Position numbers and translations under genes: made by a program | Notes under the pieces: model-generated | What the model was told of the DNA's origin: nothing | The model's input: the letters and a program-made list of their open reading frames with translations, nothing else | The model's database searches: none | NCBI GenBank assembly: GCA_041742375.1 | Contig: JBGSIU010000044.1 | Coordinates: forward strand, 2,161-66,160 | Reading direction: 5' to 3' | DNA length: 64,000 nucleotides | Source: Patescibacteria group bacterium | GTDB lineage: Bacteria; Patescibacteriota; Microgenomatia; JBGSIU01 | Shown: positions 32,017 to 63,121 of the stretch, piece after piece | How the letters are laid out: each line of letters begins with the position of its first letter | How positions within the stretch are numbered: position 1 is the first letter of the stretch

Positions 32017-32021
32017 ATTCT

Positions 32022-35982: not shown

Positions 35983-35984
35983 TA

Positions 35985-36464: not shown

Positions 36465-36470
36465 TTAATT

Positions 36471-37568: not shown

Positions 37569-37571
37569 TAT

Positions 37572-40147: not shown

Positions 40148-40148
40148 T

Positions 40149-44855: not shown

Positions 44856-44858
44856 ATT

Positions 44859-46629: not shown

Positions 46630-46663
46630 AAAAAACACATATATTATCCGTTGTGTGAATAAT

Positions 46664-47344: not shown

Positions 47345-48042
47345 ATACTATTTTGATTGTCACTATTAAATCTTGGAACATAAAAAATGCGCGAATTTTA
47401 AAACAAAAATTGAGTAAAAAGATAAAAGTAGAGATAATAACCGAAAAAGACGGATTAACGATTGAAAAAGTAAAAAAAATAGCCCCAAAATACATTTTTT
47501 TCCCTCACTGGTCGTGGATTGTTCAAAAAGAAATTTACGAAAACTTTTTATGTGTCAATTTCCATGAAACAGATTTACCATTTGGCCGTGGTGGAAGTCC
47601 CCTGCAAAATTTAATTTCGCGAAAAATTTATAAAACAAAAATCACAGCCCATAAGATAACCAAAGAAATTGACGCAGGGGATATTTATCTTCAAACGGGA
47701 ATAAACATCAAGAGAGGATCAGCACAAGAGTTGTTTTCGAAAATATCTAAAATCATTTTTTTCAGAATGATAACCGAAATTTTAGAAAAAGGCCTTTATC
47801 CTGAACCGCAAAAAGGGAAAATCGTTATTTTCAAAAGGCGAAAATCAGAAGAAAGCAATTTGGCAGAATTTAACGGAAAAAGTCTAAATAATTTATATGA
47901 TTTTATCCGTATGCTCGATGCCGAAGGATATCCAAAAGCGTTTATTAAATTAAATAATATGAAAATTCTTTGCTCTGATGTAAAATACGCTCATAATTCC
48001 CTTTTGGGAAAATTTGAAGTAGTCAAAAATGAAACAAATTAA
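47341..48042 (+). CDS. Formyltransferase-family protein (Fmt/PurN-like catalytic domain)
   Basis: 'VNFHETDLPFGRGGSPLQNLI' matches the HxSLLPxxRG formyltransferase signature. Confidence 0.65.
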   Translation: MNTILIVTIKSWNIKNARILKQKLSKKIKVEIITEKDGLTIEKVKKIAPKYIFFPHWSWIVQKEIYENFLCVNFHETDLPFGRGGSPLQNLISRKIYKTKITAHKITKEIDAGDIYLQTGINIKRGSAQELFSKISKIIFFRMITEILEKGLYPEPQKGKIVIFKRRKSEESNLAEFNGKSLNNLYDFIRMLDAEGYPKAFIKLNNMKILCSDVKYAHNSLLGKFEVVKNETN

Positions 48043-49078
48043 GATTGGCAACAAGACAATAAACGAAAATTCTCCGGTATATTTTGTGGCAGAAATGTCG
48101 GCCAATCATTTGCAGAAATATGACCTGGCTGTTGAAACGATTCATGCCATGAAAAAAGCGGGGGCTGACGCAGTTAAGCTTCAAACCTACACCCCTGATA
48201 CAATAACTCTTGACTGCGATAATAAATATTTTACACTCCATCAAGGCACAATTTGGGACGGACAAAAATTTTATGAGCTATATAAAACAGCATACACGCC
48301 ATGGGCTTGGCACTCGAAGCTTCAAAAAGTTGCCCACAACCTTGGTATGGAATTTTTTTCCACACCGTTTGACGAATCTGCAGTTGATTTTTTGGAAAAA
48401 TTAAAAGTTCCCGCATATAAAATTGCTTCTTTCGAAATTGTCGATATTCCCTTAATTGAAAAAACTGCCTCAAAAGGTAAACCCATGATAATTCCAACCG
48501 GTGTCGCTGGGATTTCTGATATTGCAGAAGCAGTCGAAGCATGCAGGCGTCAAGGAAACGATCAAATAATCCTTCTCATCTGCTCGTCATCATATCCTGC
48601 TTTGCTCGAAGAGATGAATTTAAAAACATTGCCGAATATGGCGAGTACTTTCGGAACTCTAATCGGTTTATCCGACCATACACTTGGGCAAACCGTTTCA
48701 ATTGCTGCAGTCGCGCTTGGAGCAAAAATGATAGAAAAACATTTTACCCTAGATAAGAAGCTTAGCGGTCCAGATTCAGCTTTTTCCTTAGAGCCAAAAG
48801 AGTTTAAAGAGATGGTTACGGCTGTTAGAGAAGCTGAAAAGGCATTAGGAAGAGTAACGTATGAAATAACTGATAAGAAAAGGAAAAACCGCGAACTTTG
48901 TCCCTCTCTTTTTGTGTCAGAAAATGTAAAAAAAGGAGATATTTTAACAAATAAAAATATTCGGTCCGTGAGACCGGGATTTGGTTTGCCGCCAAAATAT
49001 TTAAGCCAATTATTGGGTAAAAAAATGCGTTTCAATTTAAAAAGGGGCACGCCTCTTAAATGGGAGCATGTAGAATAA
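48029..49078 (+). CDS. NeuB-family nonulosonic acid synthase (pseudaminic acid synthase PseI-like) with a C-terminal SAF domain
   Basis: 'IGNKTINENSPVYFVAEMSANH...AGADAVKLQTY', 'IGLSDHTLG' and C-terminal 'IRSVRPGFGLPPKY'. Confidence 0.85.
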   Translation: MKQIKIGNKTINENSPVYFVAEMSANHLQKYDLAVETIHAMKKAGADAVKLQTYTPDTITLDCDNKYFTLHQGTIWDGQKFYELYKTAYTPWAWHSKLQKVAHNLGMEFFSTPFDESAVDFLEKLKVPAYKIASFEIVDIPLIEKTASKGKPMIIPTGVAGISDIAEAVEACRRQGNDQIILLICSSSYPALLEEMNLKTLPNMASTFGTLIGLSDHTLGQTVSIAAVALGAKMIEKHFTLDKKLSGPDSAFSLEPKEFKEMVTAVREAEKALGRVTYEITDKKRKNRELCPSLFVSENVKKGDILTNKNIRSVRPGFGLPPKYLSQLLGKKMRFNLKRGTPLKWEHVE

Positions 49079-49093
49079 AAACCTTCTATTTAT

Positions 49094-49585
49094 ATGTTGT
49101 CTATAAATCATACTATTATCCGTACAGTCACGAAAGATGATTCGCAATTAATTTTGAGCATAAGAAACGATAAAGAGTTACGTAAATTTTCTTTTAACGA
49201 CAAAAAAATATCTAAACAAGCTCATAAAAGATGGTTTGATAAAATGATCTCAGAGGAAAATAATATCCATTTAATATTAGAATATAATTCTAAAACAGCC
49301 GGACTCATTCGTTTAGATATATTAAATATAGATAAAAAATCTGCTCTTGTAGGAATTATTGTAATTGTAAAAGAATTTAGAGGGAAGGGATTAGGAAAAA
49401 TTCTTTTTAATGAGGCAATTAAAAAGCTTCGTGAAACATTTCCCAATATAAAAAGCATTAAAGCATATGTTTTAACAACGAATGTAAAATCAATGAATTA
49501 TTTTTTAGCCCTAGGTTTTAAAAATAAAAAAAGTGTGTTAAGAAAAGGTAAAAGTGCAATCGAATATGAACTTACAAATATATGA
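49094..49585 (+). CDS. GNAT N-acetyltransferase, PseH-like
   Basis: 163 aa GNAT fold ('VGIIVIVKEFRGKGLGKILFNEAIK...KAYVLTTN'). Lies between the NeuB-family gene and the CMP-synthetase gene. Confidence 0.6.
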   Translation: MLSINHTIIRTVTKDDSQLILSIRNDKELRKFSFNDKKISKQAHKRWFDKMISEENNIHLILEYNSKTAGLIRLDILNIDKKSALVGIIVIVKEFRGKGLGKILFNEAIKKLRETFPNIKSIKAYVLTTNVKSMNYFLALGFKNKKSVLRKGKSAIEYELTNI

Positions 49586-50295
49586 ATAAAATATTGTTGA
49601 CAATTTGTGCACGAGGTGGGTCAAAAGGTGTTAAAAATAAAAATATAAAAAATTTAAACGGTTCTCCTTTAATTTACTACACGATTCAACAAGCACGAGA
49701 ATGGGGAAGAGCTAAACACATTGTGGTCAGTACGGATTCGGAAAAAATCGCAAAAATAGCAAAAACTTGCGGAGCTGAAGTTCCGTTTTTACGACCAAAA
49801 GAGCTTGCTGAAGATAAAAGTCCAAAATTACCAGTCATTCGCCACGCACTTCTGGAATGTGAAAAAATATATCGTGAAAAATATGATTTTGTTGTTGATT
49901 TGCAGCCGACATCGCCCGTGAGGAAAATTAAAGATTTAAAAAATTGCTTAAAGCTTTTTCTTAAAGCGAAACCGCACATGCTTATCAGTGTCTCAAATTC
50001 AGACAAAAATCCATATTTCAATTTAGTTGAACAAGTTAACAGAATGGAAATTCGTCTGTGTAAAAACGCCGACAGACAAATAACCAGACGTCAGGATGCG
50101 CCAAAAATTTATGCAATTAACGGATCGATTTACATCTATGACAGAAGTTATCTCCTGAAAAAGGAAAATCTTTCACCGATTAGCGACAAAACTGTCATAT
50201 ATCAAATGGATGAATACTCTTCAATTGATATAGATAATGAAATTGATTTCAGATTTGTTGAATTTTTAATTAAAGAAAAATATATTTCTATATAG
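49582..50295 (+). CDS. CMP-nonulosonate synthetase (acylneuraminate cytidylyltransferase family, NeuA/PseF/LegF-like)
   Basis: 'ILLTICARGGSKGVKNKNIKNLNGSPLIYYTI'. Confidence 0.8.
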   Translation: MNKILLTICARGGSKGVKNKNIKNLNGSPLIYYTIQQAREWGRAKHIVVSTDSEKIAKIAKTCGAEVPFLRPKELAEDKSPKLPVIRHALLECEKIYREKYDFVVDLQPTSPVRKIKDLKNCLKLFLKAKPHMLISVSNSDKNPYFNLVEQVNRMEIRLCKNADRQITRRQDAPKIYAINGSIYIYDRSYLLKKENLSPISDKTVIYQMDEYSSIDIDNEIDFRFVEFLIKEKYISI

Positions 50296-50298
50296 CAT

Positions 50299-51153
50299 AT
50301 GCTTCATAGGATTATCGCGCGACTTGATATTAAAGGTCCTAATTTGGTTAAGGGGATACATCTTGAAGGTTTGAGAGTGTTGGGAAAACCGGAAGAGTTT
50401 GCTAAATATTACTTTAATGAAGGAATTGATGAGTTAATTTACGTTGACACGGTTGCAAGTTTATATGGCAGAAATAGTTTGGATGATATTATTTCTAAAA
50501 CAGCCGCCAAAATTTTTATTCCACTAACGGTTGGTGGGGGTATACGTTCAATAGAAGATATAAAGAGAATTCTAAGAGCGGGGGCAGACAAAGTTGCGTT
50601 AAACACGGCGGCCATCAAAAACCCAAAAATTATAAGTGAGGCAGCCAATATTTTTGGTTCATCAACGATTACTGTTTCCATAGAAGCACTAAAACAAAAT
50701 AATGGTGAATATCTGGCATATACCGACAACGGAAGAGAATATACGGGGATTGAAGTTGTTGCCTGGGCAAAAAAAGTTGAAAAATTGGGAGCCGGAGAAA
50801 TTCTTTTAACCTCAATTGATAATGAGGGGACAGGGAAAGGATATGATTTGGAATTAATTAAAAAGGTCGCGCGTAGAGTTTCGATCACAACTGTTGCCTG
50901 TGGTGGAGCAGGTTCAATGAAAGATCTCTCCGAAGCGATTATTTTTGCAGGGGCCGATGCAGTTTCTGTTTCATCGATACTGCATTATAGTTATATCAAA
51001 AAACATAAACGCATTGATGGTTATGAAGATGAAGGGAATATCGAATTTTTAAAGAATGAAAATTTAAACCCGGATGCTTCTTTTGTTGAAGCCAATATTG
51101 AATCGATTAAATTTTTTTTATCTAAGAAAAAAATACCAGTACGTCTGTCCTGA
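50299..51153 (+). CDS. HisF-like cyclase subunit paralog (WbuZ/HisF2-type; acetamidino-group biosynthesis)
   Basis: 'IIARLDIKGPNLVKGIHLEGLRVLG...VDTVAS' with a (beta/alpha)8 HisF pattern. Sits in a glycan cluster next to HisH-like and WbuX-like genes. Confidence 0.85.
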   Translation: MLHRIIARLDIKGPNLVKGIHLEGLRVLGKPEEFAKYYFNEGIDELIYVDTVASLYGRNSLDDIISKTAAKIFIPLTVGGGIRSIEDIKRILRAGADKVALNTAAIKNPKIISEAANIFGSSTITVSIEALKQNNGEYLAYTDNGREYTGIEVVAWAKKVEKLGAGEILLTSIDNEGTGKGYDLELIKKVARRVSITTVACGGAGSMKDLSEAIIFAGADAVSVSSILHYSYIKKHKRIDGYEDEGNIEFLKNENLNPDASFVEANIESIKFFLSKKKIPVRLS

Positions 51154-51180
51154 AAATTATACCAATATTTATAAAAATTA

Positions 51181-51834
51181 ATGATTAAACCGAAAATCGC
51201 GATTATTGATTATAAAATGAGCAATTTATTCAGTATAAAACATGCCTGTGATTTTGTCGGCGGCGCGTCTTCCATCACTTCAGACAAAAAAGATATTAAA
51301 AATGCCGATGCAATCATTCTTCCGGGAGTTGGTGCCTTCGGCGCGGCAATGCAAAATCTAAAAAAGTTAGATTTATTAGATTTGATTATTCAGTTGGTTG
51401 AAAAGAAAAAACCTTTTATGGGCGTCTGTTTGGGAATGCAGCTCTTTTTCTCCCAAAGCGAAGAATTTGGGATTCATAAAGGACTTAATTTAATTCAAGG
51501 CAAAATAATGAGGTTTCCTTCATCTTATGGATCTAAAAACAAAATTAAAGTTCCACAAATCGGCTGGAATAAAATTTATCACGTTAAAAAGAAAAAAAAA
51601 CAATGGGGGCTTTCGCCATTAAGCGATGTGAAAGAATTTGCGTATATGTATTTTGTTCACTATTACTATTGTTGCCCAAGCAACAAAGAAGACGAAGTTT
51701 GCGCAACTTCTTACGAAGGGGTTGAATATTGTTCGGGCATCCTGCATAATAATATTTTTGCAGTACAATTTCATCCGGAGAAAAGTGGGCAGATTGGATT
51801 ACAAATTTACAAAAATTGGATACATAATTTATAA
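51181..51834 (+). CDS. HisH-like class I glutamine amidotransferase subunit (WbuY/HisH2-type)
   Basis: 'IAIIDYKMSNLFSI...AIILPGVGAFG', catalytic 'GVCLGMQL' and 'FAVQFHPEKS'. Confidence 0.85.
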   Translation: MIKPKIAIIDYKMSNLFSIKHACDFVGGASSITSDKKDIKNADAIILPGVGAFGAAMQNLKKLDLLDLIIQLVEKKKPFMGVCLGMQLFFSQSEEFGIHKGLNLIQGKIMRFPSSYGSKNKIKVPQIGWNKIYHVKKKKKQWGLSPLSDVKEFAYMYFVHYYYCCPSNKEDEVCATSYEGVEYCSGILHNNIFAVQFHPEKSGQIGLQIYKNWIHNL

Positions 51835-51840
51835 ATTAAT

Positions 51841-53064
51841 ATGAAAAAAGTTAAAACTAAATTTGGCTTGCCGAGAAAAGTTGTCTTTTGCACGAATTGT
51901 GTCATATCGAATCAGCGTCCAGCGTCATCAATTGAATTTTTCAACAAGAAGGAAAGCAAAAAAGCCACAATGCATATAGACGAGAGCGGAGTTTGCGATG
52001 CGTGTTTGGCCGCAAAGCAGAAAGAAAAAATTGATTGGAAAGAGAGAGAAAAAGAACTGATGAGACTGCTTGACAAATATCGCCGAAATGACGGGAATTA
52101 CGACTGTGTCGTGCCTGGAAGCGGAGGAAAGGATAGTGCTTGTCAAGCTCACCTTTTAAAATATAAATATGGCATGCATCCATTAACCGTGACATGGTCA
52201 CCAATCCTTTACACCGATTATGGATACAAAAATTTCAAAAATTGGATAGAAATCGGAGGTTTTGACAACATAGCTTTCAAACCAAATGGTCGGGTTATGA
52301 AGCTTTTAACAAAACTTGCGATTGAAAATCTTCTGCATCCATTTCATACTTTTATCCTCGGCCAAAAAAATTTAGGGCCCAAAATCGCTCTTAAATATAA
52401 AATCCCCCTCATTTTTTATGGTGAGAACGAAGCGGAATATGGAAACCCAATCGCAGACAACTCAACATCGTTGAGAACAAAATCATATTATTCCATTTCT
52501 AATCTCGATAATATTTTTTTAAGCGGAGTAAAAATCAGTAGACTAATCGAAAAATATAAAATCGCACTTTCGGATTTGATGGCATTTTTACCGGTGCATT
52601 ATAACGAGCTTAAAAATCGTAATTTACAAGTTCACTATCTCGGTTATTATCTTAAATGGGTTCCGCAAGAAGCATATTACTTTGCAGTTAAACACACAGG
52701 TTTTCAGCCCAGACCTTTTCGAACTCAGGGAACATATAGTAAATATAACAGTATTGATGATAAAATTGACGACCTTCATTATTACACAACATATATAAAG
52801 TTTGGAATTGGTAGGGCGACATATGATGCTTCTCAGGAGATCAGAAATAAACATTTAACTCGTGAAGAAGGTGTTGCTTTGGTAAAAAAATTTGACGGAG
52901 AATTCCCAGACAAGTATTTTCAGGAGGTAATGGATTACTTGGAAATTAAACCTGAATTTTTTCATAAACTTTGTAATAAATTCAGATCTCCGCATCTTTG
53001 GAAAATAGTTGGAAATCAATGGAGGTTACGGCACAATGTTTGGAATGGAGGTACAGACGATTAA
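51841..53064 (+). CDS. N-acetyl sugar amidotransferase (WbuX/WbpG-like, PP-loop ATP-pyrophosphatase)
   Basis: N-terminal Cys cluster 'CTNCVISNQRP...CDAC' and PP-loop 'VVPGSGGKDS'. Confidence 0.8.
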   Translation: MKKVKTKFGLPRKVVFCTNCVISNQRPASSIEFFNKKESKKATMHIDESGVCDACLAAKQKEKIDWKEREKELMRLLDKYRRNDGNYDCVVPGSGGKDSACQAHLLKYKYGMHPLTVTWSPILYTDYGYKNFKNWIEIGGFDNIAFKPNGRVMKLLTKLAIENLLHPFHTFILGQKNLGPKIALKYKIPLIFYGENEAEYGNPIADNSTSLRTKSYYSISNLDNIFLSGVKISRLIEKYKIALSDLMAFLPVHYNELKNRNLQVHYLGYYLKWVPQEAYYFAVKHTGFQPRPFRTQGTYSKYNSIDDKIDDLHYYTTYIKFGIGRATYDASQEIRNKHLTREEGVALVKKFDGEFPDKYFQEVMDYLEIKPEFFHKLCNKFRSPHLWKIVGNQWRLRHNVWNGGTDD

Positions 53065-53108: not shown

Positions 53109-54494
53109 ATGAAAGTATTATTGGTGGTTTATGATAATGATTCGTATATTTCTTGGTTTCCGCAAGGCTTGGCGTATGTGGCAACCGTTTTGAGGAAAAA
53201 AGGGCATGAGGTGACAATTTATAGCCAGGATGTTTATCATTGGAAAGAATCACATCTAAGAAAGTTCCTTGATAAAAGAAAATTTGACGTGGTCGGAGTT
53301 AGTGTGATCGCCGGATATTATCAATATCGTAAACTTCTTCAAATATCAAAAGCAATAAATCGATCAAAGTACAGACCTTTTTACATTCTGGGCGGTCATG
53401 GACCGGCACCTGAACCGGAATATTTTATGAAAAAAACTAAAGCTGATATCATTGTAATTGGAGAAGGTGAAATTACAACAGTCGAAATCATGGAAGCTTT
53501 GGAGAAGAAAAGAAAATTTTCTTCAGTGAAAGGAATAGCATACAGGGATGGCAAAAAAATTATCGTTAACGAAAGAAGACCATTAATCGCCAATATTGAC
53601 CAAATTGATTTTCCTGCTTATGATCTGTTTCCCTTAGATCACTATGCTTTGATGCGTACTCTTCCGGGTCTTGAGAATAATGAGCGTTGTATGCCGATGT
53701 TGTCTGGAAGGGGATGTATCTTTCAGTGCAATTTTTGTTACAGAATGGATAAAGGGTTCAGACCCCGTTCGATTAAAAATATTCTTGAAGAAGTGGAAAA
53801 GCTGCAGAAAGACTATGCCATTACTTCAATTGTTTTCTCAGACGAATTACTGATGAGTTCAGTAGACAGAACGATTGAAGTTTGTGAAGGATTGCTGAAA
53901 TCAAAAGTCAAATTCAAATGGGGTTGCAACGGACGCTTGAATTTTGCAAAGTTTGACGTTTTAAAATTAATGAAAAAAGCAGGCTGCACATTCATTAATT
54001 ACGGAATTGAATCAATGGATCAAGATGCTTTGAATGTCATGAAAAAAGGATTAACAGTTAAAATGATTCACGATGGCATTAAAAACACATTGCAGGTTGG
54101 TATCAATCCGGGTTTAAATATTATTTTTGGCAACATCGGTGAAACGAAAGCAGTCTTAAAAAAAGACGTTGAATTTCTCCTGAAATACGACGATCACGCG
54201 CAAAGAAGAACTATCCGTCCGGTGACACCTTACCCAGGTTCACCTCTTTATTATTATGCAATAGAAAAAGGATTGCTTAAAGATTGCCAAGATTTTTACG
54301 AGAATAAACATGTTAACTCCGATCTTTTAGCGGTTAACTTCACCAATATGTCAGACGACGAATTCCACAAGGCTTTATTTCGGGCTAATAAAAAATTGCT
54401 CACCGCATACTTCGAAGATTCTAAACAAAAAATCATTGAAAGCGCGAGACAACTTTACACAGGAAAAAATAATGCGTTTCGAGGTTTCCGCTAA
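53109..54494 (+). CDS. B12-binding domain radical SAM enzyme (class B radical SAM, methyltransferase-like)
   Basis: N-terminal B12-binding Rossmann region, then 'LSGRGCIFQCNFCY' (CxxxCxxC). 461 aa. Confidence 0.8.
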   Translation: MKVLLVVYDNDSYISWFPQGLAYVATVLRKKGHEVTIYSQDVYHWKESHLRKFLDKRKFDVVGVSVIAGYYQYRKLLQISKAINRSKYRPFYILGGHGPAPEPEYFMKKTKADIIVIGEGEITTVEIMEALEKKRKFSSVKGIAYRDGKKIIVNERRPLIANIDQIDFPAYDLFPLDHYALMRTLPGLENNERCMPMLSGRGCIFQCNFCYRMDKGFRPRSIKNILEEVEKLQKDYAITSIVFSDELLMSSVDRTIEVCEGLLKSKVKFKWGCNGRLNFAKFDVLKLMKKAGCTFINYGIESMDQDALNVMKKGLTVKMIHDGIKNTLQVGINPGLNIIFGNIGETKAVLKKDVEFLLKYDDHAQRRTIRPVTPYPGSPLYYYAIEKGLLKDCQDFYENKHVNSDLLAVNFTNMSDDEFHKALFRANKKLLTAYFEDSKQKIIESARQLYTGKNNAFRGFR

Positions 54495-54512
54495 TTTCCT
54501 CGAGTAATTAAA

Positions 54513-54572
54513 AATTAATATCAATTTTATGTTGATGAATAAGTTTATATCAGTATAATATTGATATTAATT
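54513..54572 (+). promoter_or_regulatory. Nested inverted repeats (AATTAATATCAAT ... ATTGATATTAATT, inner ATATCA-gtataat-TGATAT) containing a TATAAT box, upstream of the second NeuB gene
   Basis: A perfect 13-bp inverted repeat with an inner 6-bp inverted repeat. TATAAT at 54553-54558. Confidence 0.45.
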
Positions 54573-54580
54573 AAGCGTAA

Positions 54581-55627
54581 ACGATTACTATTAAAAATAA
54601 AAAGATCGGTCAAGGTCATCCTTGCTTCATTATCGCCGAAGCAGGAGTTAATCATAACGGAAATTTGGATTTGGCGTTTAAATTAGTTGACGCAGCAAAA
54701 GAAGCTGGTGCCGATGCAGTCAAGTTTCAAACATTTAAAGCAGAAAATGTTGTTATTCCGCGAGGGAAAATGGTCGGTTATCAAATTAAAAATATTGGTC
54801 AAGAAAAAAGTCAACTGGAGATGATTAGGAAAATTGAGTTAAAAGATAAAGATTTTGGTAAAATTAACGAATATTGTAAAAAAAAAGAGATCATATTTCT
54901 TTCCACACCGCACGGTGGTAAACAAAGCGTTGATATGCTTGCTTCTTTGCGTATGCCAGCCTATAAGATAGCTTCAGGAGATTTAACAAATTACATCATG
55001 TTGGAAAAAATTGCTAAACTTGGCAAGCCTGTCATTCTGAGTACGGGTATGGCAACTTTAAAAGAAATTAGAAATACGGTTGCTTATCTTCAATCGAAGG
55101 GCAATGATCAAATTATTGTTTTACAATGCACAACTAGCTACCCATGCCCAGCAGATGAGGCAAATGTAAGATCGATGTTAACCATCGCCCAAAAAGTCAA
55201 CGTTTTAGTTGGTTATTCCGATCACACTTTGGGAAATGAAGCTGCCATAGCCGCGACTACTCTCGGAGCCATGATGTACGAGTGTCATTTTACTCTTGAT
55301 AAAAAGTTACCGGGACCGGATCACATTGCTTCAGCAAGTCCCCAAGAATTGAAATCGCGAATCAAAGCTATAAGAATAACAGAAAAGATTCTTGGAAATT
55401 GGCAAAAGGAACCGACTAAGAGTGAAACAGGGGAAATGTTGGAAACGATGAGGAAAAGTGTCGTTGCGGCACACAGGATGAAAAAGGGGCATATTATATC
55501 TACTAATGATTTAGAAGCCAAAAGACCAGGAGATGGTTTATCTCCGGTTTATTTTGAAAAGCTTATCGGACTGGTTCTAAAAAGAAATATAAAGAAAAAT
55601 GAGCAGTTATTAATATCTCATTTCTAA
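54581..55627 (+). CDS. Second NeuB-family nonulosonic acid synthase (LegI/NeuB-like) with SAF domain; start codon unresolved
   Basis: The conserved N-terminus 'IGQGHPCFIIAEAGVNHNGNLDLA' is encoded upstream of the ORF-track TTG at 54665. The frame is open back to the TAA at 54578-80 with no ATG/GTG/TTG. 'VGYSDHTLG' and a C-terminal SAF 'LEAKRPGDGLSP'. Confidence 0.75.
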   Translation, partial: TITIKNKKIGQGHPCFIIAEAGVNHNGNLDLAFKLVDAAKEAGADAVKFQTFKAENVVIPRGKMVGYQIKNIGQEKSQLEMIRKIELKDKDFGKINEYCKKKEIIFLSTPHGGKQSVDMLASLRMPAYKIASGDLTNYIMLEKIAKLGKPVILSTGMATLKEIRNTVAYLQSKGNDQIIVLQCTTSYPCPADEANVRSMLTIAQKVNVLVGYSDHTLGNEAAIAATTLGAMMYECHFTLDKKLPGPDHIASASPQELKSRIKAIRITEKILGNWQKEPTKSETGEMLETMRKSVVAAHRMKKGHIISTNDLEAKRPGDGLSPVYFEKLIGLVLKRNIKKNEQLLISHF

Positions 55628-55633
55628 TAATAT

Positions 55634-56785
55634 TTGATGAATTCTAATAAAAAAACAATTGCTTTTATAACAGGAACAAGAGCGGATTATGGTATCATGC
55701 AGCCTGTTTTGCAAAAAATTCAGCAAAGCCCGAAATTAAAACTCCAACTATACGCGACAGGCATGCATTTAATGTCTGATTATGGCCATACAATTGATAT
55801 TGTTAAACGTGATTTCCCAGAAGTTTCGACAATTAACGTTGTTTTTAAAACCAATAATCGTTTAGGCATGGCTCGTTTTACTTCTCAACTCCTCAGTAAA
55901 CTGACAGAAATTTTTGCAAAAAATCGCCCAGATCTGTCTTTAGTATTTAGTGATCGATCCGAGATGCTGTGCGTAGCGATTACTTCTTTATATTTTGGTA
56001 TACCTATTGTTCATATTCATGGAGGCGATATAACAAACACTATTGATGATTCGACTCGTCATGCCATTAGCAAAATGTCTCATATCCATTTTCCTCCAAC
56101 AGAAGAAGCAAAAAATCGACTAATTAACATGGGAGAAGAAAAATGGCGAATTCATGTTGTTGGTGCTCTTGGTCTTGATTCATCTGCCAATAAAAATCTT
56201 TTAGCAAGAAAAGAATTGTTTGAGAAATTTAAAATTGCCACAGGATCAAAATTTGTTTTAGTCACTCAACATCCGGTCAGCGAAGAAATAAATGAAGCTG
56301 CAAAGCAGATGAAAGAAACGATAGAAGCGATTAAAAAAATAAATTTGCCGGTAATAGTTATATACCCAAATGCTGATGCAGGTAGCCGTGATATGATAAA
56401 AATCATAAATAAAGAAAAAAATAATCCAGTATTCCATATTTTCCCCAACATCGATCATAAAATTTTTCTTTCTCTGGAAAAGGAAGCAAATGTTTGGGTA
56501 GGTAATAGTAGCGCCGGAATTGTGGACTCATCTTTTTATAAAACGCCCGTTGTTAATATTGGTATCAGACAGCTTGGTCGACCGCAAGGAGAAAACATTA
56601 TCAATGTTAACCATGATGCAGGAGAAATATATAAGGCGATGAAAAAATCATTATATGATAAAAAGTTTTTAAAAAAAATATCTTTTTGTCATAACTCTTG
56701 GGGCAACGGGTCTGGAACGCCAAAAATTATAAAAATATTAGAAAATCTTATAATTAATAAGAGAATGTTGATAAAACATGCATGA
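55634..56785 (+). CDS. UDP-N-acetylglucosamine 2-epimerase (hydrolysing), NeuC/LegG-like
   Basis: 'IAFITGTRADYGIMQPVLQKI...ATGMHLMSDYGHT' and 'VHIHGGDITNTIDDSTRHAISKMSHIHF'. Confidence 0.85.
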   Translation: MMNSNKKTIAFITGTRADYGIMQPVLQKIQQSPKLKLQLYATGMHLMSDYGHTIDIVKRDFPEVSTINVVFKTNNRLGMARFTSQLLSKLTEIFAKNRPDLSLVFSDRSEMLCVAITSLYFGIPIVHIHGGDITNTIDDSTRHAISKMSHIHFPPTEEAKNRLINMGEEKWRIHVVGALGLDSSANKNLLARKELFEKFKIATGSKFVLVTQHPVSEEINEAAKQMKETIEAIKKINLPVIVIYPNADAGSRDMIKIINKEKNNPVFHIFPNIDHKIFLSLEKEANVWVGNSSAGIVDSSFYKTPVVNIGIRQLGRPQGENIINVNHDAGEIYKAMKKSLYDKKFLKKISFCHNSWGNGSGTPKIIKILENLIINKRMLIKHA

Positions 56786-56791
56786 TTATAT

Positions 56792-57811
56792 ATGAAAAGT
56801 AATCTCATAAAAATTGCTGTGACAAGTGTTGGTGGGGGAGTCGGACAAAGTATTGTGAAAGCGTTAAGTGATTCTGATTATCATCTAATTGGTTTAGATG
56901 CAAATATTTTAAGCGCAGGTTTATATGCTGTTCCAGTGGCTTATATTATTCCTCGGGCAAATGAGCTCCATTATATCAGTTCACTATTAAAAATCTGTGA
57001 AAAGGAAAAATGCCGTATAATTTTTCCCGGCTCCGACACTGAATTATCAATTCTTTCGAAAAATACAAAAAGATTTGAAAAAATTGGAACAACCGTGGTC
57101 ATCAGTCGTCCAGCAGTGATTGATGCCTGTGATGACAAACTGCAGACGTATTTATTATTAAAGGATAGAATTTCCATATCTAAAACGAGAGAAGCTGAAG
57201 ATTTTTTTAATAAAAAGGCTAAATTTGACTATCCGGTCATTATTAAACAAAAAATTGGCGGTTCAAGATCAAAAAATGTTTTCTTAGTAAAAAATGAAAA
57301 CGGTCTGACAAATCTTTTTTCAAAAGATGGTTTTTATGTCAAAGACTATATTGTGCAAGAATATATTGAATGGGACGAATACACCTGTGGGAGCATAAAT
57401 CTGAACGGAAAATGTTATGGTGTCATCGTGATGAGACGGATATTAAGAGATGGTGACACGTATAAATGTTTCGTTGAAAAAAATCAAAAAATCGAAGATC
57501 TCGTATTTAAAATAATGAAGATTCTTAAACCATTTGGAGCTTGTAACGTTCAACTGCGCCTGAAGAAAAATATCCCCTATATTTTTGAAATTAATGCCCG
57601 CTGTTCTGGCACGACCGCAGCAAGAGCTATTTGTGGTTTTAATGAACCGAAAATGGTTGCTGACTATATTTGTTATGGTAAAAAGCCCTCGTTCTCTATA
57701 AAAGAACTGTCAATCTTAAGATACTGGAAAGAATTAGTTATTGAACCAAAACAGATAGAGGAAATTATAAAGACAAATAAGCTTAATAATGAGTTTTTCA
57801 CACGATTATAA
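56792..57811 (+). CDS. ATP-grasp domain protein (carboxylate-amine ligase-like)
   Basis: 339 aa. A PreATP-grasp N-terminus, then 'YPVIIKQKIGGSRSKNVFLV', 'NVQLRL' and 'IFEINARCSGTT'. Confidence 0.7.
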   Translation: MKSNLIKIAVTSVGGGVGQSIVKALSDSDYHLIGLDANILSAGLYAVPVAYIIPRANELHYISSLLKICEKEKCRIIFPGSDTELSILSKNTKRFEKIGTTVVISRPAVIDACDDKLQTYLLLKDRISISKTREAEDFFNKKAKFDYPVIIKQKIGGSRSKNVFLVKNENGLTNLFSKDGFYVKDYIVQEYIEWDEYTCGSINLNGKCYGVIVMRRILRDGDTYKCFVEKNQKIEDLVFKIMKILKPFGACNVQLRLKKNIPYIFEINARCSGTTAARAICGFNEPKMVADYICYGKKPSFSIKELSILRYWKELVIEPKQIEEIIKTNKLNNEFFTRL

Positions 57812-57821
57812 AACTACAAAT

Positions 57822-58655
57822 ATGAAAGTATTAATTGTCGGAGCAAACGGTTTCCTCGGCAGGCATCTTGTTGAAAAATGTTTAGCATATCGATGGAAAG
57901 TATCAGTCGTGTATTCTAAAAACAGAAACAATTTGCCGGCAAACTGCGAACAAATACATATTGATAACATTGATAATCTTGATGATAATTACGAAATGAT
58001 TTTTTTATCAACGGGAAATTTTTCCCTGAGTTACCACGATTTGATTAAAGCTAATGTGGAAACGATTTTAATTCTACTGAAAAAGTTTAGGAAGTCAAAA
58101 ATAATTTTTATTTCTAGTGTATCGGTATATGGCGATCAAAAAAAAATAATAAATGAGGAGACATGCTTTAATAATCCCACTATTTACGGTTTATCTAAGA
58201 TTGCAGGTGAATTCGTCACTGCGAGTTTTCGGCGATATGCGATTATCAGATTAAGTTATTTATATGGTAAAGACATGATGCCCAAATCTTTTCTGCCAAT
58301 TATATTAAGAGATGCAAAAAGAAATAGAAAAATTATATTAACTAATCAAGGAAAAAGATTGCAGGATTATCTTCATGTTGATGATGCGGCGACAATTTGC
58401 CTAAAAGCAGCTCTCCATAATAAAAACGGGATTTTTTTAGGAGCAACGGGAAAATCATACTCAAATCTTAAAGTCGCGCAAGTGATTAGTAATGACATTG
58501 AGAGATGTGAAATAGTTTTTTCTCAACTGAATAAATATTCCCCTTCGTATGTTATTAACAATAAAAAAACAAAAGATGCTTTAAACTGGTCACCTGAACA
58601 TTTATTGATTAATGACCTGCATGAATTAATTAAAAATGAAAATTGCAATTTTTAG
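57822..58655 (+). CDS. NAD-dependent epimerase/dehydratase family protein
   Basis: 'MKVLIVGANGFLGRHLVEKC' and 'YGLSKIAGE'. The ATG at 57822 avoids overlap with the upstream gene; the ORF-track start is 57789. Confidence 0.7.
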   Translation: MKVLIVGANGFLGRHLVEKCLAYRWKVSVVYSKNRNNLPANCEQIHIDNIDNLDDNYEMIFLSTGNFSLSYHDLIKANVETILILLKKFRKSKIIFISSVSVYGDQKKIINEETCFNNPTIYGLSKIAGEFVTASFRRYAIIRLSYLYGKDMMPKSFLPIILRDAKRNRKIILTNQGKRLQDYLHVDDAATICLKAALHNKNGIFLGATGKSYSNLKVAQVISNDIERCEIVFSQLNKYSPSYVINNKKTKDALNWSPEHLLINDLHELIKNENCNF

Positions 58656-59271
58656 TGACATACATGGTAATTTGCCTGCGTTTGAAATCCTCTTAAAAAC
58701 TCTTGGGAAAGTAGATCAGTATATTTTTCTTGGTGACGTTGTTAACTATGGTCCGTGGAACAATGAATGTCTTGAGCTTCTCGCAAGTTTAAACAACTGT
58801 ATTAAAATATTTGGTAATCACGATAAATATTTCATTAACAAAAAGTGCATGGGAAATACGCCTCTAGTTCAGCTATTTTTTTCATTTTGCATAAAAGAAT
58901 TTTCAGCCTTTTCCTATTTTTCTGATTTCGTGGAAAGTTACGAATTTAATCATTATTACTTTCAGCATACCATTAACCAAGAACGCGTTTACCCGGACGA
59001 TCATCTATCTCTGGAGAAGAACACAGTAATTGGTCATTCTCACTATATGTTTCATATGCAGTCAAATGGTTTCCAATTTTATAATGCAGGTAGCGTTGGG
59101 CAGAATAGAAAGTATATCAATGTAATTAACTATCTTTTATACTATCCGGATAAAGGAAAAATAGAAATGAAAAACATTGTATATAATGTTGATCGTGTTA
59201 TTAATGAGATGAAAAAGAAGGGGTATCCCAAGTTATGTATCGATTATTATTTAAATAAAAACAGATATTAA
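58636..59271 (+). CDS. Calcineurin-like metallophosphoesterase (YfcE-like)
   Basis: 'MKIAIFSDIHGNLPAF...GDVVNYGPWNNEC...GNHD'. Confidence 0.7.
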   Translation: MKIAIFSDIHGNLPAFEILLKTLGKVDQYIFLGDVVNYGPWNNECLELLASLNNCIKIFGNHDKYFINKKCMGNTPLVQLFFSFCIKEFSAFSYFSDFVESYEFNHYYFQHTINQERVYPDDHLSLEKNTVIGHSHYMFHMQSNGFQFYNAGSVGQNRKYINVINYLLYYPDKGKIEMKNIVYNVDRVINEMKKKGYPKLCIDYYLNKNRY

Positions 59272-59272
59272 C

Positions 59273-60376
59273 ATGAAGCAGTATCAAGTTGCAAAACCAT
59301 TTATCACGGACAAAGACAAAAAAAATGTTTTAAGCGTATTAAATTCAGCCAAATTGTCTCTAGGACCGAAATATCTGGAATTTGAATCAAATATAAAAAA
59401 ATACATTGGTTGTAAATATGCTTGCGCGGTGGCGAATGGCACCTGCGGTTTACATCTTGCGGTTAAAGCGCTTTCTTTAAAAAAAGGGGACGAGGTTGTT
59501 ACCTCGCCGTTTTCTTTCATTTCTTCCTCAAATTGCCTTTTATATGAACGTGTAAAACCAATATTTGTTGATATTGAGGAAGAAACATATAATATTGATC
59601 CGGATAAAATTGAGAAAGCCATAACTAGGAAAACGAAGGCAATTTTAGTTGTTCACATTTTTGGCCAAACGGCAGCGATGGATAAAATAACGCAACTGGC
59701 GAAAAAACATAATTTAAAAATTATTGAAGATGCTTGTGAAAGCATAGGGGCGGCCTACAAAAGAAAAATGGCTGGAACATTTGGACAGGTTGGTGTCTAT
59801 GCTTTTTATCCAAATAAACAGATGACGACAGGCGAGGGAGGGATGATCGTGACAAATTCAAAAAAGATAGATGCTCTTTGCAAAAGTTTGAGGAATCAGG
59901 GCAGAAACGTAAAGGGAGATTGGCTAATTCACGAGCGACTTGGATTTAATTACCGAATGGACGAAATGAGTTCGGCCCTTGGCATTACACAGCTTGAAAA
60001 ATTAAATTGGATGATTGAGGAAAAACGGAAAATAGCTGGATTGTATAATCGGCAATTAGCAAATATTCACCAAGTTATTACTCCCAAAGTTGCTGCGGAC
60101 AGGACTCATTCTTGGTTTGTCTACGTAATACGAGTTAAATATGGAGAAAGAAATAATTTGATGAAAAAATTAATGTCGCATGGTATCCAAACAAAACCTT
60201 ATTTACCCGTGATCCATCTCCAGCCATTCATGAGAAAAATGTTCCATTATAAATTGGGAGATTTTCCCGTTGCTGAGAAAATTTCTTCACAAACGCTTGC
60301 CCTGCCTTTTTATATTGGTTTAAAGGTAAAAGATATTAACAATATCTCTTCTTTAATTACAAAAATTTTGCATTAG
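59273..60376 (+). CDS. DegT/DnrJ/EryC1-family PLP aminotransferase (fourth in the window)
   Basis: 367 aa in the DegT family ('ACAVANGTCGLHLAVKAL'). Confidence 0.85.
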   Translation: MKQYQVAKPFITDKDKKNVLSVLNSAKLSLGPKYLEFESNIKKYIGCKYACAVANGTCGLHLAVKALSLKKGDEVVTSPFSFISSSNCLLYERVKPIFVDIEEETYNIDPDKIEKAITRKTKAILVVHIFGQTAAMDKITQLAKKHNLKIIEDACESIGAAYKRKMAGTFGQVGVYAFYPNKQMTTGEGGMIVTNSKKIDALCKSLRNQGRNVKGDWLIHERLGFNYRMDEMSSALGITQLEKLNWMIEEKRKIAGLYNRQLANIHQVITPKVAADRTHSWFVYVIRVKYGERNNLMKKLMSHGIQTKPYLPVIHLQPFMRKMFHYKLGDFPVAEKISSQTLALPFYIGLKVKDINNISSLITKILH

Positions 60377-60381
60377 AAAAT

Positions 60382-61824
60382 ATGAATATTTTAGTTTATG
60401 GATATTACGATGAGAAAGATACGATTTCGCTGAATGAAACCCTGAAAACTATTATGAAAAAATTCCGCGTCAGGAAATATTACATAAATGCCGATTATGA
60501 TGAAAAGCTCGAACTTACACCCTTCAAAGAATTAAATAATCATGATAATCCCAGCGTTGATTGGTCGGTATTAAAACCACTTGATGGAGAATTGCTGAAA
60601 AAAATGGCAGATTGTGAAGTAACCGTGTTAAAGATGATGGATAGGCTGGAATGCGAGCAAATAAAACATGTTACCTATGCTGAAAGAAAGAGATTGTATC
60701 TGAGATACTTGAGATATTGCAACGATTTTCTCAAAAATAATAAAATCAACATGCTTCTTCATGGCAACGTTCCGCATTCGGTTTATGATTTCATTATATA
60801 TTCTCTCTGTCGAGTGAAAGGAATTCCGGTTATTTTTGTCTATCAGGTGATGGAAGATATGATGTTTTTTGAAAGTAAGTGGGAAAATCTTGGAGATGAT
60901 ATTCGGAAAGAATACGCGAGAATGGAAAAAGGGACGAACGTCACCCTTGCATATCCGTATTCTACTTTGTTCAACAAACAGACGTCGAAGAAGAACCCGG
61001 TACAATTCTATATGATAAAAGAGAATGCTATTAAAAAGTATTTTCGTGATTTGCTCATCGGCGTAAGGACCAACCCAAAAATTTTTATTAGAAAGATGAG
61101 CTCTTTGACATATTGGAAGACACAGGGAAAAGAAAGAATAAATAAATTTATTCATCTGCTTAAATCAAAAATTTTGTTTACATATTATAACGCACGAGCT
61201 GAAGTTCCTGATTTGCAGAGAAAATACATATATATCCCCTTGCATTATCAACCCGAGAGATCGACGTCGCCACTCGCAGGATCATTCGTCAACCAACTGT
61301 TAATAATTGAGATGCTTTCTGTACTTATTCCCGAAAACACATTATTATTTGTTAAAGAACATCCAAGACAGCATGACATTGGCCGCGATCGCCACTTTTA
61401 TCAAGATCTAAAGAAATACAGAAATGTAAAGTTAATGCCAAGAGATTTTGATTCGTTTACTCTCATCAATCATTGTCTTGCCGTAGCAACAGCTACGGGA
61501 ATGGCTGGTATTGAAGGATTGTTCAGAGAAAAACCTGTTATCTGGTTTGGACATGATTTTTTCCAATTCGCCCCCGGATCTTTTAGAGTTTCAAAATTGA
61601 AAGATTGTGAATATGCCTTAAACCAAATCATCAACAAACAGGTAAAACCAAAACTTTGCGATATTAAATTATATTTAAAAGCGATGGAAAAAATTGGAAT
61701 TGTTGGTTATGTAAGCCCTGATTACCGTAAAGTTTCGCTTTTGTCAACTTATGAGAACAATAGGAATATTACGGAAGGTTTAATTAGAAAAATGAAACAA
61801 CTTGGTTTTAAAACATATGAATAA
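60382..61824 (+). CDS. GT-B-like transferase (capsule-polysaccharide KpsC/KpsS/LpsZ-like or TagB/F-like); candidate CMP-sugar or CDP-alditol transferase
   Basis: 480 aa. 'YIYIPLHYQPERSTSP' and C-terminal 'NHCLAVATATGMAGIEGLFREKPVIWFGHDFF'. The family assignment is tentative. Confidence 0.35.
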   Translation: MNILVYGYYDEKDTISLNETLKTIMKKFRVRKYYINADYDEKLELTPFKELNNHDNPSVDWSVLKPLDGELLKKMADCEVTVLKMMDRLECEQIKHVTYAERKRLYLRYLRYCNDFLKNNKINMLLHGNVPHSVYDFIIYSLCRVKGIPVIFVYQVMEDMMFFESKWENLGDDIRKEYARMEKGTNVTLAYPYSTLFNKQTSKKNPVQFYMIKENAIKKYFRDLLIGVRTNPKIFIRKMSSLTYWKTQGKERINKFIHLLKSKILFTYYNARAEVPDLQRKYIYIPLHYQPERSTSPLAGSFVNQLLIIEMLSVLIPENTLLFVKEHPRQHDIGRDRHFYQDLKKYRNVKLMPRDFDSFTLINHCLAVATATGMAGIEGLFREKPVIWFGHDFFQFAPGSFRVSKLKDCEYALNQIINKQVKPKLCDIKLYLKAMEKIGIVGYVSPDYRKVSLLSTYENNRNITEGLIRKMKQLGFKTYE

Positions 61825-63121
61825 AAAAATTTCTATTATTTCTTTAGCGTGCGCGCCCTTTGCAGTTGAAGCGTATGACGAAACAGTAAAATGCTTGGAA
61901 AAAAAAGGGTGCGAAATTACACATATCGGTTTTTCCGTGAAAAACTGGATTCCTTCAGATTATCATGATGTTTCGATGACCTACCGGAAATTTAATTATC
62001 CCGTTTTTGTTATCCCGCGAGTTAATCCAGAAAGCATGCAAATTGCGTGCGTTCCCGATTATAGATTTGAGTTTCAGCGCTCGTTTGCTGAAATTCATAA
62101 ATGGTTAGTGGCTATGATACGACAGTATCACCCCGATATATTTTTAATCGATAACGAACGTCCGGTAACAATTCTTATTGCTAAAATGTTGAAGGAAGAT
62201 GCCAGGATTCCGGTTATTGCCTTTGGCTACCATAGCTTCATTTATAGTTATAACAGAATATACCGGAATATATATTGGAAAAAAATAATTGATTTGTTCC
62301 GTTTGTTCAAATATGGCATTCCCAAGAGGATAAAAAGATTATTAGGGAAAAACGATTGGGAAATTTTCGTATCATGCCCCAAGGTGGATTTATTTGGAGA
62401 AAATGAGAGCGATATTATCTGTTCAGCCTCAGGAATTGATACAAAAACGATGATCAAATATGGAGTTTCGGCATCAAAAATTATCGAGGTTGGATCTCCG
62501 TATTTTGATAAAGCGGTTAATTATAAAAACAAATTTAGAACTTTAGTAGACAAAAGAAGCAAGAAGAAAATATTGATTATCTCAAGCGCGTTTGCTTATG
62601 GAAATAAATCGAAAATCATTAACAACTATTATGAATTGGTATGCCGGATGGTTAACAAGTTAAGCGATAAATATGATTTTTATCTGCGTTTCAAACCGTC
62701 AGTTATGCTTCCTGATTTTTTACCGAAAAGGATAAAAAAAATCATTAACAAGATAAAAACTGACGATAATTCAAAAACAGCCTATGAAGCAATCTATCAT
62801 TACGATTTGATAATGGGTGATGTTTCTTTTGTTTTGTATGAAGCGTTGATTGGTAAAAGACCGATCGCGATGTTTAATTATCGCCAACCACAAAATGTTT
62901 CCGAGATAAATTTCCTGAAAAAAGAAGTAGGTATTAAAGAAATAAAAATAGAAAATACTGATTCAGAGATCGATTCAATTATATCGGTGGCTTTTTCAAA
63001 AAAATATCTTGAGCTGATATTAAAAAATTTTAAAAATCAAGAGTATAACTTATTTTATAAACTTGACGGCAAATGCGGCGAAAGAGCGGCTGCGATAATA
63101 ACTAAAACTCTTTCAAATTGA
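61802..63121 (+). CDS. TagB/TagF-like (CDP-glycerol glycerophosphotransferase-type) GT-B transferase, tentative
   Basis: C-terminal 'YDLIMGDVSFVLYEALIGKRPIAMFNY' resembles the TagF 'DxLITDYSSxxFDxxxLxKPIIF' signature. Confidence 0.35.
   Translation: MVLKHMNKKISIISLACAPFAVEAYDETVKCLEKKGCEITHIGFSVKNWIPSDYHDVSMTYRKFNYPVFVIPRVNPESMQIACVPDYRFEFQRSFAEIHKWLVAMIRQYHPDIFLIDNERPVTILIAKMLKEDARIPVIAFGYHSFIYSYNRIYRNIYWKKIIDLFRLFKYGIPKRIKRLLGKNDWEIFVSCPKVDLFGENESDIICSASGIDTKTMIKYGVSASKIIEVGSPYFDKAVNYKNKFRTLVDKRSKKKILIISSAFAYGNKSKIINNYYELVCRMVNKLSDKYDFYLRFKPSVMLPDFLPKRIKKIINKIKTDDNSKTAYEAIYHYDLIMGDVSFVLYEALIGKRPIAMFNYRQPQNVSEINFLKKEVGIKEIKIENTDSEIDSIISVAFSKKYLELILKNFKNQEYNLFYKLDGKCGERAAAIITKTLSN

Follow-up and report, generated by a model that had tools for sequence, protein, structure and literature searches.

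Can a locus that encodes a pathway to pseudaminic acid (Pse) also make a second and different nonulosonic acid, and what would an ATP-grasp ligase contribute to it? The question is raised by a stretch of 64,000 nucleotides from a Patescibacteria group bacterium (contig JBGSIU010000044.1, positions 2,161 to 66,160 of the forward strand; assembly GCA_041742375.1), hereafter the window, the whole of which is, judged by its genes, a glycan-biosynthesis region. An earlier sequence-only reading had recognised at 54581-57811 a second synthase of the NeuB family (here NeuB2), a NeuC-like hydrolysing 2-epimerase and an ATP-grasp enzyme. Pfam and NCBIfam matches confirm all three: the interval is filled by three tightly packed open reading frames (ORFs) on the forward strand, and the two motifs that had been quoted, 'ITGTRADYG' and 'HIHGGD', are present in the translation of NeuC. 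The reading that we prefer, tentatively and at somewhat less than an even chance, is that NeuB2, NeuC and the cytidylyltransferase encoded at 49582-50295 constitute a second, non-Pse pathway, whose amino-sugar precursor would be N-acylated by a cassette that the ATP-grasp gene heads (positions in Table 1).

NeuB2, an open frame of 348 codons (54581-55627), matches Pfam NeuB with 293 bits and carries a C-terminal SAF domain. It passes the NCBIfam equivalog TIGR03569 (NeuB_NnaB) with 413 bits against a cut-off of 399.65 and fails the PseI equivalog TIGR03586 with 278.8 bits (cut-off 340.25), the model on which the other synthase of the window, its PseI, reaches 483.7 bits. The motifs that bind phosphoenolpyruvate, metal and sugar are all intact, namely 'AEAGVNHNG', 'AVKFQT' with K53 and Q55, 'YKIASGD' with K129 and S132 (residue positions are given in N. 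meningitidis NeuB numbering), 'LSTG' with S154, 'SDHT', 'HFT', 'PDH' and 'KRPG'. A Phe at the C2-specificity position, within 'KIASFE', marks PseI (PMC7371886); the PseI of the window has it, whereas NeuB2 has Gly ('KIASGD'). Because the two synthases are only ~43-47% identical, pass different equivalog models and differ in the Pse-diagnostic residue, they are by sequence members of different functional families and no recent duplicates, as the sequence-only reading had supposed.

The NeuC gene call of 382 amino acids is a member of Pfam Epimerase_2 and scores 400 bits on TIGR03568 (NeuC_NnaA, cut-off 235.9) as against 115 bits on the non-hydrolysing wecB model, under the cut-off of 210.15, so that its earlier description as a hydrolysing epimerase is upheld on profile scores. 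Its best solved relatives are the epimerase domain of human GNE (206.4 bits) and Acinetobacter LegG (5xvs, 205.6 bits), and it is 39% identical to the latter. Further upstream, the cytidylyltransferase at 49582-50295 is kin to enzymes encoded beside NeuB genes elsewhere (45% identity in locus L004, 39% in L048 and 35% in an Acinetobacter locus of the legionaminic acid (Leg) type) and is likely to be the CMP-nonulosonate synthetase of the second pathway. Since the window holds a Pse synthase, a non-Pse synthase of the NeuB type and two cytidylyltransferases, the simplest reading is that the locus likely makes two different nonulosonic acids.

The protein encoded behind NeuC combines the Pfam domains PylC-like_N, ATP-grasp_3 and ATPgrasp_Ter and, with 288.8 bits, exceeds the cut-off of 218 for NF009402 ('carbamoyl phosphate synthase-like protein'). 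The Mg site E266-x-N268 and K152 are invariant among 20 homologues, and the AlphaFold model has a pLDDT of 91.6. Its best match in sequence (phmmer E=1.4e-19) and in fold (Foldseek E=6.5e-26, TM 0.76-0.83) is PDB 2pn1, a structural-genomics entry from Exiguobacterium named 'carbamoylphosphate synthase large subunit', with no described function; the Pfam architecture is the same but the identity only ~20-25%. Carbamoyl phosphate synthase (CPS), PurK, PurT and L-amino-acid ligases follow in the fold search, matches that are generic and do not indicate the substrate. The enzyme is no housekeeping PurK or PurT, a possibility that would have undone the sequence-only reading: neither family is among its Pfam or NCBIfam matches, PurK is met in the PDB sequence search only at E=6e-5 over 90 residues (12-18% identity at the level of the fold), and the protein belongs to a glycan-locus family. 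The TupA-like ATP-grasp family, represented by the C-terminal domain of Cj1438, is likewise absent among the six Pfam families matched.

Comparison across genomes gives the ATP-grasp gene other company than had been proposed. Homologues number >1,200 at E<=1e-10 in a word-indexed search, and an exhaustive search of a library of 1.8 billion proteins returns relatives that form, at E<=1e-30, 175 clusters of 50% identity. Such relatives led to 80 species-level loci of Bacteroidota, Patescibacteria, Actinomycetota including Mycobacterium, Planctomycetota, Proteobacteria, Chloroflexota and archaea, whose ORFs were clustered; 77 of these loci carry the ATP-grasp gene. A gene for a short-chain dehydrogenase/reductase (SDR) follows it in ~70 of the 77, and a phosphoesterase, the most constant partner, is encoded next to it in 66. 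A gene for a DegT-family aminotransferase lies no further than 5 kb away in 55 loci, immediately upstream in ~25; UDP-sugar 6-dehydrogenases occur in 5 only, NeuC in 8 and NeuB in 6. In Pedobacter and Lutibacter the set consists of DegT, ATP-grasp, a short SDR and a metallophosphoesterase, and neither NeuB nor NeuC is present. These neighbourhoods place the ATP-grasp gene at the head of a cassette that is conserved as ATP-grasp, SDR, metallophosphoesterase and, usually, DegT, and the boundary that the sequence-only reading drew behind it does not stand: the gene belongs with the three downstream of it, in a cassette that mostly occurs without NeuB or NeuC. Beside relatives of 2pn1 in Firmicutes lie Polysacc_synt_2 dehydratases, DegT and FemAB-like genes, and the pair of SDR and phosphoesterase is absent from the two such loci inspected.

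The coupling of the cassette genes is supported by natural fusions that join its parts. ATP-grasp is fused to an SDR in P0250 and P0322, the SDR domain of P0322 aligning to that of the window at E=8e-14, and to a PHP phosphoesterase in P0258 and P0296, where by sequence an unrelated phosphatase family takes the role of the metallophosphoesterase. Other fusions add a FemAB-like/Acetyltransf_6 domain (P0269, P0302), a methyltransferase (P0313) or a Bac_transf phosphoglycosyl transferase (P0367). The DegT differs in type from one context to another, DesI-like in Bacteroidota but of the window's type (DegT_c) in loci linked to nonulosonic acids (NulO), while the ATP-grasp stays 50-57% identical; this fits a ligase that would acylate an amine supplied by the local DegT, and in the window DegT_c is the candidate source. 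No characterisation of the cassette was found in the literature searched; Lea3 of E. coli O161 is called an 'alanyltransferase' in a review that does not state its enzyme family.

Two further associations of the cassette may be recorded here. On megaplasmid pSMED01 of Sinorhizobium medicae (L085, 8899-10928) an ATP-grasp of 34% identity and an SDR, without a metallophosphoesterase, directly follow genes for the synthesis of 3′-phosphoadenosine 5′-phosphosulfate (PAPS) and a CysQ-like phosphatase, and sulfate-activation and sulfotransferase genes lie upstream at 514-5033 of L004; a link to sulfated glycans is possible. In two of the NulO-linked loci (L048, 11800-13517; L004, 18643-20369) a polysaccharide deacetylase and a formyltransferase-like gene accompany the cassette, the deacetylase of L048 occupying the position of the metallophosphoesterase.

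What joins the cassette to the nonulosonate genes is a gene order. NeuB, NeuC, ATP-grasp and SDR follow one another not only in the window but also in a metagenome contig (L004), a Candidatus Daviesbacteria metagenome-assembled genome (MAG; L017), which has the best-matching arrangement, and a gammaproteobacterial MAG (L048). At the junction of NeuC and ATP-grasp the genes overlap by 14, 1 and 11 nucleotides, respectively, the window having a 6-nucleotide gap. That order and overlapping junctions are kept in proteins only 48-57% identical to those of the window speaks for co-expression and for an arrangement under selection. DegT_c has orthologues in L004 (63% identity) and L048 (60%), and the WbuZ/HisH-like/WbuX trio, which turns N-acetyl into acetamidino sugars, lies beside NeuB, NeuC and ATP-grasp in L004 and L017 as well. 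L004 further holds a cytidylyltransferase and a PseB/PglF-family UDP-GlcNAc 4,6-dehydratase homologue (310 bits on the PseB model, under its cut-off), and within 10 kb on either side no hexapeptide acetyltransferase of the PglD/LegH type is found, which would leave the N-acylation step of a Leg route free for the ATP-grasp.

The closest biochemical precedent for the ATP-grasp, likened to it by gene context and proposed reaction and not by sequence, would be the Pat/Pyl system of Bacillus cereus ATCC 14579. According to the passages of PMC11626204 that treat it (citing Hwang et al. 2014, J Biol Chem 289:35620), an ATP-grasp enzyme there ligates 2-oxoglutarate to a UDP-4-amino sugar on the way to UDP-Yelosamine, and ATP-grasp enzymes of the Pyl type are associated with small phosphoglycosyl transferases (PMC11626204). 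Both systems place an ATP-grasp gene beside a DegT-type aminotransferase in a glycan locus, and both are associated with a phosphoglycosyl transferase, here through the Bac_transf fusion described above. They differ in that the window-type cassette adds an SDR and a phosphoesterase and, in the window and three further loci, stands together with NeuB and NeuC. The B. cereus Pyl is reported to act on UDP-4-amino-FucNAc, and the polymer is said to bear a 2-hydroxyglutar-5-ylamido group, which would imply a later reduction of a kind possible for an SDR. A flavobacterial O-antigen contains similar hydroxyglutaryl-amido sugars, and glutamyl-substituted legionaminic acid is found on clostridial flagellin. 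The suggestion of the sequence-only reading that the ATP-grasp forms an amide on an amino group of the nonulosonate fits this precedent, and by analogy with it we infer that the cassette N-acylates an amino sugar made by a DegT enzyme, in the window probably the one from which the second nonulosonate is built.

The gene identities, the conserved cassette, its fusions and the repeated order of NeuB, NeuC, ATP-grasp and SDR can be read off the DNA; the route that we infer, with its substrates, order of steps, acyl group and Leg-type product, would run as follows. A 4,6-dehydratase and a DegT aminotransferase would make a nucleoside diphosphate (NDP)-linked 4-amino-4,6-dideoxy-HexNAc, and the ATP-grasp would, with ATP, join a carboxylic acid to that amine, replacing the PglD/LegH acetyltransferase. 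The SDR would alter the attached acyl group or the sugar, for instance by reducing an oxo to a hydroxy group, and the phosphoesterase would take phosphate off some intermediate. NeuC and NeuB2 would then turn the N-acylated precursor into a 7-N-acyl Leg-type acid, possibly followed by conversion to an acetamidino form by WbuXYZ and by activation with CMP. A bolder version, which we consider doubtful, would see in ATP-grasp, SDR and phosphoesterase a triad common to many phyla that places non-acetyl N-acyl groups (a hydroxy-acid, say, or an acyl group with a phosphorylated acid as its source) on NDP-4-amino sugars and that has been recruited here in place of PglD/LegH, putting the acyl group at N7 of a Leg-type acid.

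Several observations weigh against our preferred reading. To begin with the synthase, a TAA stop at 54578-54580 lies immediately 5′ of the NeuB2 frame, and no ATG, GTG or TTG is found between it and the conserved N-terminal motif. The earliest canonical start in frame, TTG 54665, would delete the 'IIAEAGVNHNG' strand, which leaves two ATT codons, at 54584 and 54590, as the only possible starts before the motif. In the orthologues an initial 'MK..' precedes the point that corresponds to the TAA by 6-11 residues, and all 28 other gene starts inspected in the window are ATG or GTG, a Shine-Dalgarno sequence being seen in none. It would follow from the sequence either that one of the ATT codons initiates, ATT being a permitted if rare start in translation table 11, or that the 5′ end of the gene is damaged or its start lost. 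Were NeuB2 such a 5′-damaged pseudogene, the second nonulosonate module would be defunct and only the Pse pathway and the cassette would be active; we regard this as very unlikely, given a frame of 348 codons that is otherwise open, catalytic motifs that are all kept, and intact NeuC and downstream genes. A promoter-like site ahead of NeuB2 falls in the sole sizeable intergenic gap of the gene run (54495-54580), but counts for little in an AT-rich region that yields 52 such sites where 33 are expected.

Two further points concern the start of the proposed route and the history of its ligase. No retaining 4,6-dehydratase is encoded next to the module, the window having only PseB and an RmlB-like SDR, both elsewhere; a PseB-like dehydratase can also supply the D-gluco series in B. 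cereus (PMC4514872). The four NulO-linked ATP-grasps form one clade in a neighbour-joining (NJ) tree of 74 taxa, a clade recovered in only 17 of 200 bootstraps of a 34-taxon subset.

The phosphoesterase poses a problem of its own, for the most constant partner of the ATP-grasp is left unexplained by a simple Pyl-like acylation, unless, as may be the case, the acid or an intermediate is phosphorylated. It would find a place in a scheme modelled on Cj1438C, Cj1437 and Cj1435 of Campylobacter jejuni, which form a glucuronamide with serinol phosphate (PMC11800379). The ATP-grasp would on this view activate the carboxylate of a sugar, a uronic or ulosonic acid, and join it to a phosphorylated amine, after which the phosphoesterase would remove the phosphate. 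Aminotransferase, ATP-grasp amide ligase and phosphatase are the enzyme classes of that capsule locus (PMC11800379) and of the cassette alike; the phosphoesterase is the tightest partner in the cassette, being exchanged for a fused PHP phosphoesterase in P0258 and P0296, and UDP-sugar 6-dehydrogenases do occur in some cassette loci, albeit in just 5. The two systems differ, however, in their families: a TupA-like ATP-grasp stands against the PylC-like_N/ATP-grasp_3/ATPgrasp_Ter architecture here, a HAD phosphatase against the metallophosphoesterase or PHP, and C. jejuni has no SDR in the set. Moreover, the cassette DegT is no single conserved orthologue but changes with the sugar context and resembles nucleotide-sugar aminotransferases, and an amino-sugar substrate better suits the fusions with FemAB-like acyltransferases and a phosphoglycosyl transferase. 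Amidation of this kind thus appears improbable.

The remaining points touch the product of the second pathway. NeuA, NeuB and NeuC suffice for N-acetylneuraminic acid (Neu5Ac), so that NeuB2, NeuC and the cytidylyltransferase alone would be enough for plain Neu5Ac, and the sequences (NJ trees, active-site residues and NeuC scores) gave no separation of Neu from Leg. For the trees, E. coli O104 NeuB and NeuC (from the O-antigen cluster L086, the source of the Neu5Ac references), N. meningitidis NeuB, B. subtilis SpsE, human GNE, and Acinetobacter LegG with its neighbouring synthase served as references, the last pair coming from the Acinetobacter lga locus (L087), which was reached via LegG; searches of E. 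coli genomes gave Neu5Ac-type neuB genes and one pseI only and no Leg-type reference. NeuB2 and NeuC each fall into a clade of their own with their counterparts in L004, L017 and L048, that of NeuB2 adjoining the E. coli O104 Neu5Ac synthase (81% and 61% support; 46-49% identity), and the E. coli Neu5Ac enzymes group with the Acinetobacter Leg-type ones (NeuC 100%, NeuB 77%). Since proteobacterial enzymes of different product group together, position in these trees would follow lineage and not product. Published active-site discriminators divide Pse from non-Pse enzymes only, and residue 184 of NeuB2, a Thr, fits neither published pattern (PMC7371886).

It is from this side that the simplest rival comes, namely that the two gene sets are mere neighbours: NeuB2, NeuC and the cytidylyltransferase would make ordinary CMP-Neu5Ac for a glycan to which the cassette separately contributes an N-acylated amino hexose, as it presumably does in Bacteroidota. 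The rarity of NeuB and NeuC beside the cassette, which is without them in >90% of loci, speaks for it, as do the sufficiency of NeuA, NeuB and NeuC, the place of the NeuB2 clade next to the E. coli O104 synthase and the equal closeness of NeuC to human GNE and LegG. The tree argument loses its force because the Acinetobacter Leg-type synthase and LegG themselves group with the E. coli Neu5Ac enzymes, and mere vicinity would hardly account for an order and for overlapping junctions kept in three other loci at such low identity. These loci, moreover, carry DegT_c, WbuXYZ and, in L004, the 4,6-dehydratase homologue, none of which has a role in Neu5Ac synthesis. We therefore consider mere vicinity rather unlikely.

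Set against the two known pathways, the module resembles both. With the Neu5Ac pathway of E. coli O104 it shares the three enzyme families NeuC, NeuB and NeuA, but it lies among WbuXYZ, DegT and ATP-grasp genes that are without a role there. With the Leg pathway (PglF/LegB, PglE/LegC, PglD/LegH, LegG, LegI and LegF) it shares a NeuC-type 2-epimerase, a NeuB-type synthase, a CTP_transf_3 enzyme and a nearby DegT, but no PglD-type acetyltransferase or PglF-type dehydratase adjoins it, and between DegT_c and the aminotransferase of Acinetobacter the identity is only 27%. The context mildly favours a Leg-like, 5,7-diamino product, at slightly better than even chances, because WbuXYZ and DegT flank the module in the window and in related loci, because L004 adds the PseB/PglF-family dehydratase, and because GFO-type oxidoreductases surround the cytidylyltransferase in L004 and L048 as they do in the Acinetobacter locus. 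Our preferred reading, in which the cassette acylates the precursor of the second nonulosonate, takes up this lean.

Table 1. Genes and sites of the window, in order of position (counted from its first nucleotide), with the basis of each assignment.
Feature	Position	Strand	Basis or remark
PseB	32823-33839		family match
PseC	33836-34978		family match
GFO-type dehydrogenase, 159-aa hexapeptide acetyltransferase, DegT, NeuD-family acetyltransferase	34975-38198		directly after PseB/PseC
RmlB/LegB-like SDR and DegT-methyltransferase fusion	39152-41903		family matches
Aldo-keto reductase and SpsF-like CTP_transf_3 cytidylyltransferase	41909-43548		family matches
PseI, synthase of the first (pseudaminic acid) pathway	48029..49078	+	TIGR03586, 483.7 bits (cut-off 340.25)
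CTP_transf_3 cytidylyltransferase	49582..50295	+	family match; kin of NeuB-adjacent enzymes
WbuZ (HisF-like), HisH-like, WbuX trio (N-acetyl to acetamidino sugars)	50299..53064	+	NCBIfam
B12-binding radical SAM protein	53109-54494		weak BchE, HpnJ and P-methyltransferase-like matches
Promoter-like site TTGATG-16-TATAAT	54532..54559	+	10/12 consensus matches
NeuB2, NeuB/LegI-type nonulosonate synthase with SAF	54584..55627	+	Pfam/NCBIfam; ATT start presumed
NeuC/LegG-type hydrolysing NDP-HexNAc 2-epimerase	55634..56785	+	Pfam/NCBIfam; likely start ATG 55637
ATP-grasp carboxylate-amine ligase, PRK12767.1-1 family (cassette gene 1)	56792..57811	+	Pfam/NCBIfam, fold, neighbours
Extended SDR, 288 aa, GANGFLG and YGLSK motifs	57789..58655	+	23-nt overlap with ATP-grasp
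Metallophosphoesterase, YfcE/Ap4A-hydrolase-like	58636..59271	+	20-nt overlap with SDR
DegT_c, DegT-family sugar aminotransferase	59273..60376	+	family match; orthologues in L004, L048

In the wider locus the Pse set looks complete (PseB, PseC and PseI), a PseH-like GNAT accompanying PseI. The genes that directly follow PseC (34975-38198) resemble a branch to a 3-amino (2,3-diacetamido) sugar. The DegT among them (36471-37568) had been put forward in the sequence-only reading as a possible participant in a Leg route; it resembles the C3-aminotransferases QdtB (337 bits), DesV (305) and WbpE (214) and adjoins a 3-dehydrogenase-like GFO protein and a hexapeptide acetyltransferase, so that it more likely serves a 3-amino sugar and is a poor candidate for C4-amination, the conserved partner of the ATP-grasp being the DegT at 59273-60376. 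At 40149-41903 a protein of 584 residues fuses a DegT domain (residues 9-370) to an S-adenosylmethionine (SAM)-dependent methyltransferase (~427-524), which suggests an N-methylated amino sugar.

The pairing of an aldo-keto reductase with a CTP_transf_3 enzyme, seen ahead of PseI, is known from Pse clusters (PMC7371886). The same region (41909-48042) also holds a class-III (GSA-like) aminotransferase, a FemAB-family protein, a methyltransferase, a PIG-L deacetylase and a formyltransferase, a set that suggests de-N-acetylation of the Pse sugar followed by its re-acylation, formylation or aminoacylation. The acetamidino trio (TIGR03572 269 bits, TIGR01855 203 bits and TIGR03573 362 bits) sits between the second cytidylyltransferase and the radical SAM gene. 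The latter lies directly upstream of NeuB2, is not kept in the related NulO-linked loci and may encode a C- or P-methylase of the glycan. On the 3′ side of the cassette, two proteins of 480 and 439 amino acids (60382-63121), with no family match or only a partial one to Capsule_synth (KpsS-like), are candidate ulosonic-acid transferases. The first 31,000 nucleotides (1-31000) encode many GT-C-type multi-pass membrane proteins (PMT_2, PIG-V-like, DUF2079), GT4 transferases and several large unmatched ORFs; with the ABC exporter pair that follows at 31168-32786, they are in keeping with a very large locus for surface glycans in a Patescibacteria-like organism.

Two or three nonulosonate pathways are found together in several bacteria, and NeuB2 and NeuC are ordinary members of known families, a second nonulosonate route within one locus being nothing unusual. 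The value of the finding is instead the widespread cassette of ATP-grasp, SDR, phosphoesterase and DegT genes, which is linked here with a nonulosonate pathway. Antigenicity and host recognition are shaped by the non-acetyl N-acyl groups that nonulosonic acids and other amino sugars bear, such as glyceroyl, hydroxybutyryl, alanyl, glutamyl and hydroxyglutaryl, and the enzymes that install them are mostly unknown. The genetic basis of such nonulosonates has been called 'a major challenge' and an open problem (PMC5378307). If the triad reading is true, it would supply a genetic basis for non-acetyl N-acyl nonulosonic acids, in a cassette of three to four genes small enough to be tested directly in vitro, and if the cassette is indeed the acylating machinery, it would provide a searchable genomic marker for such modifications.

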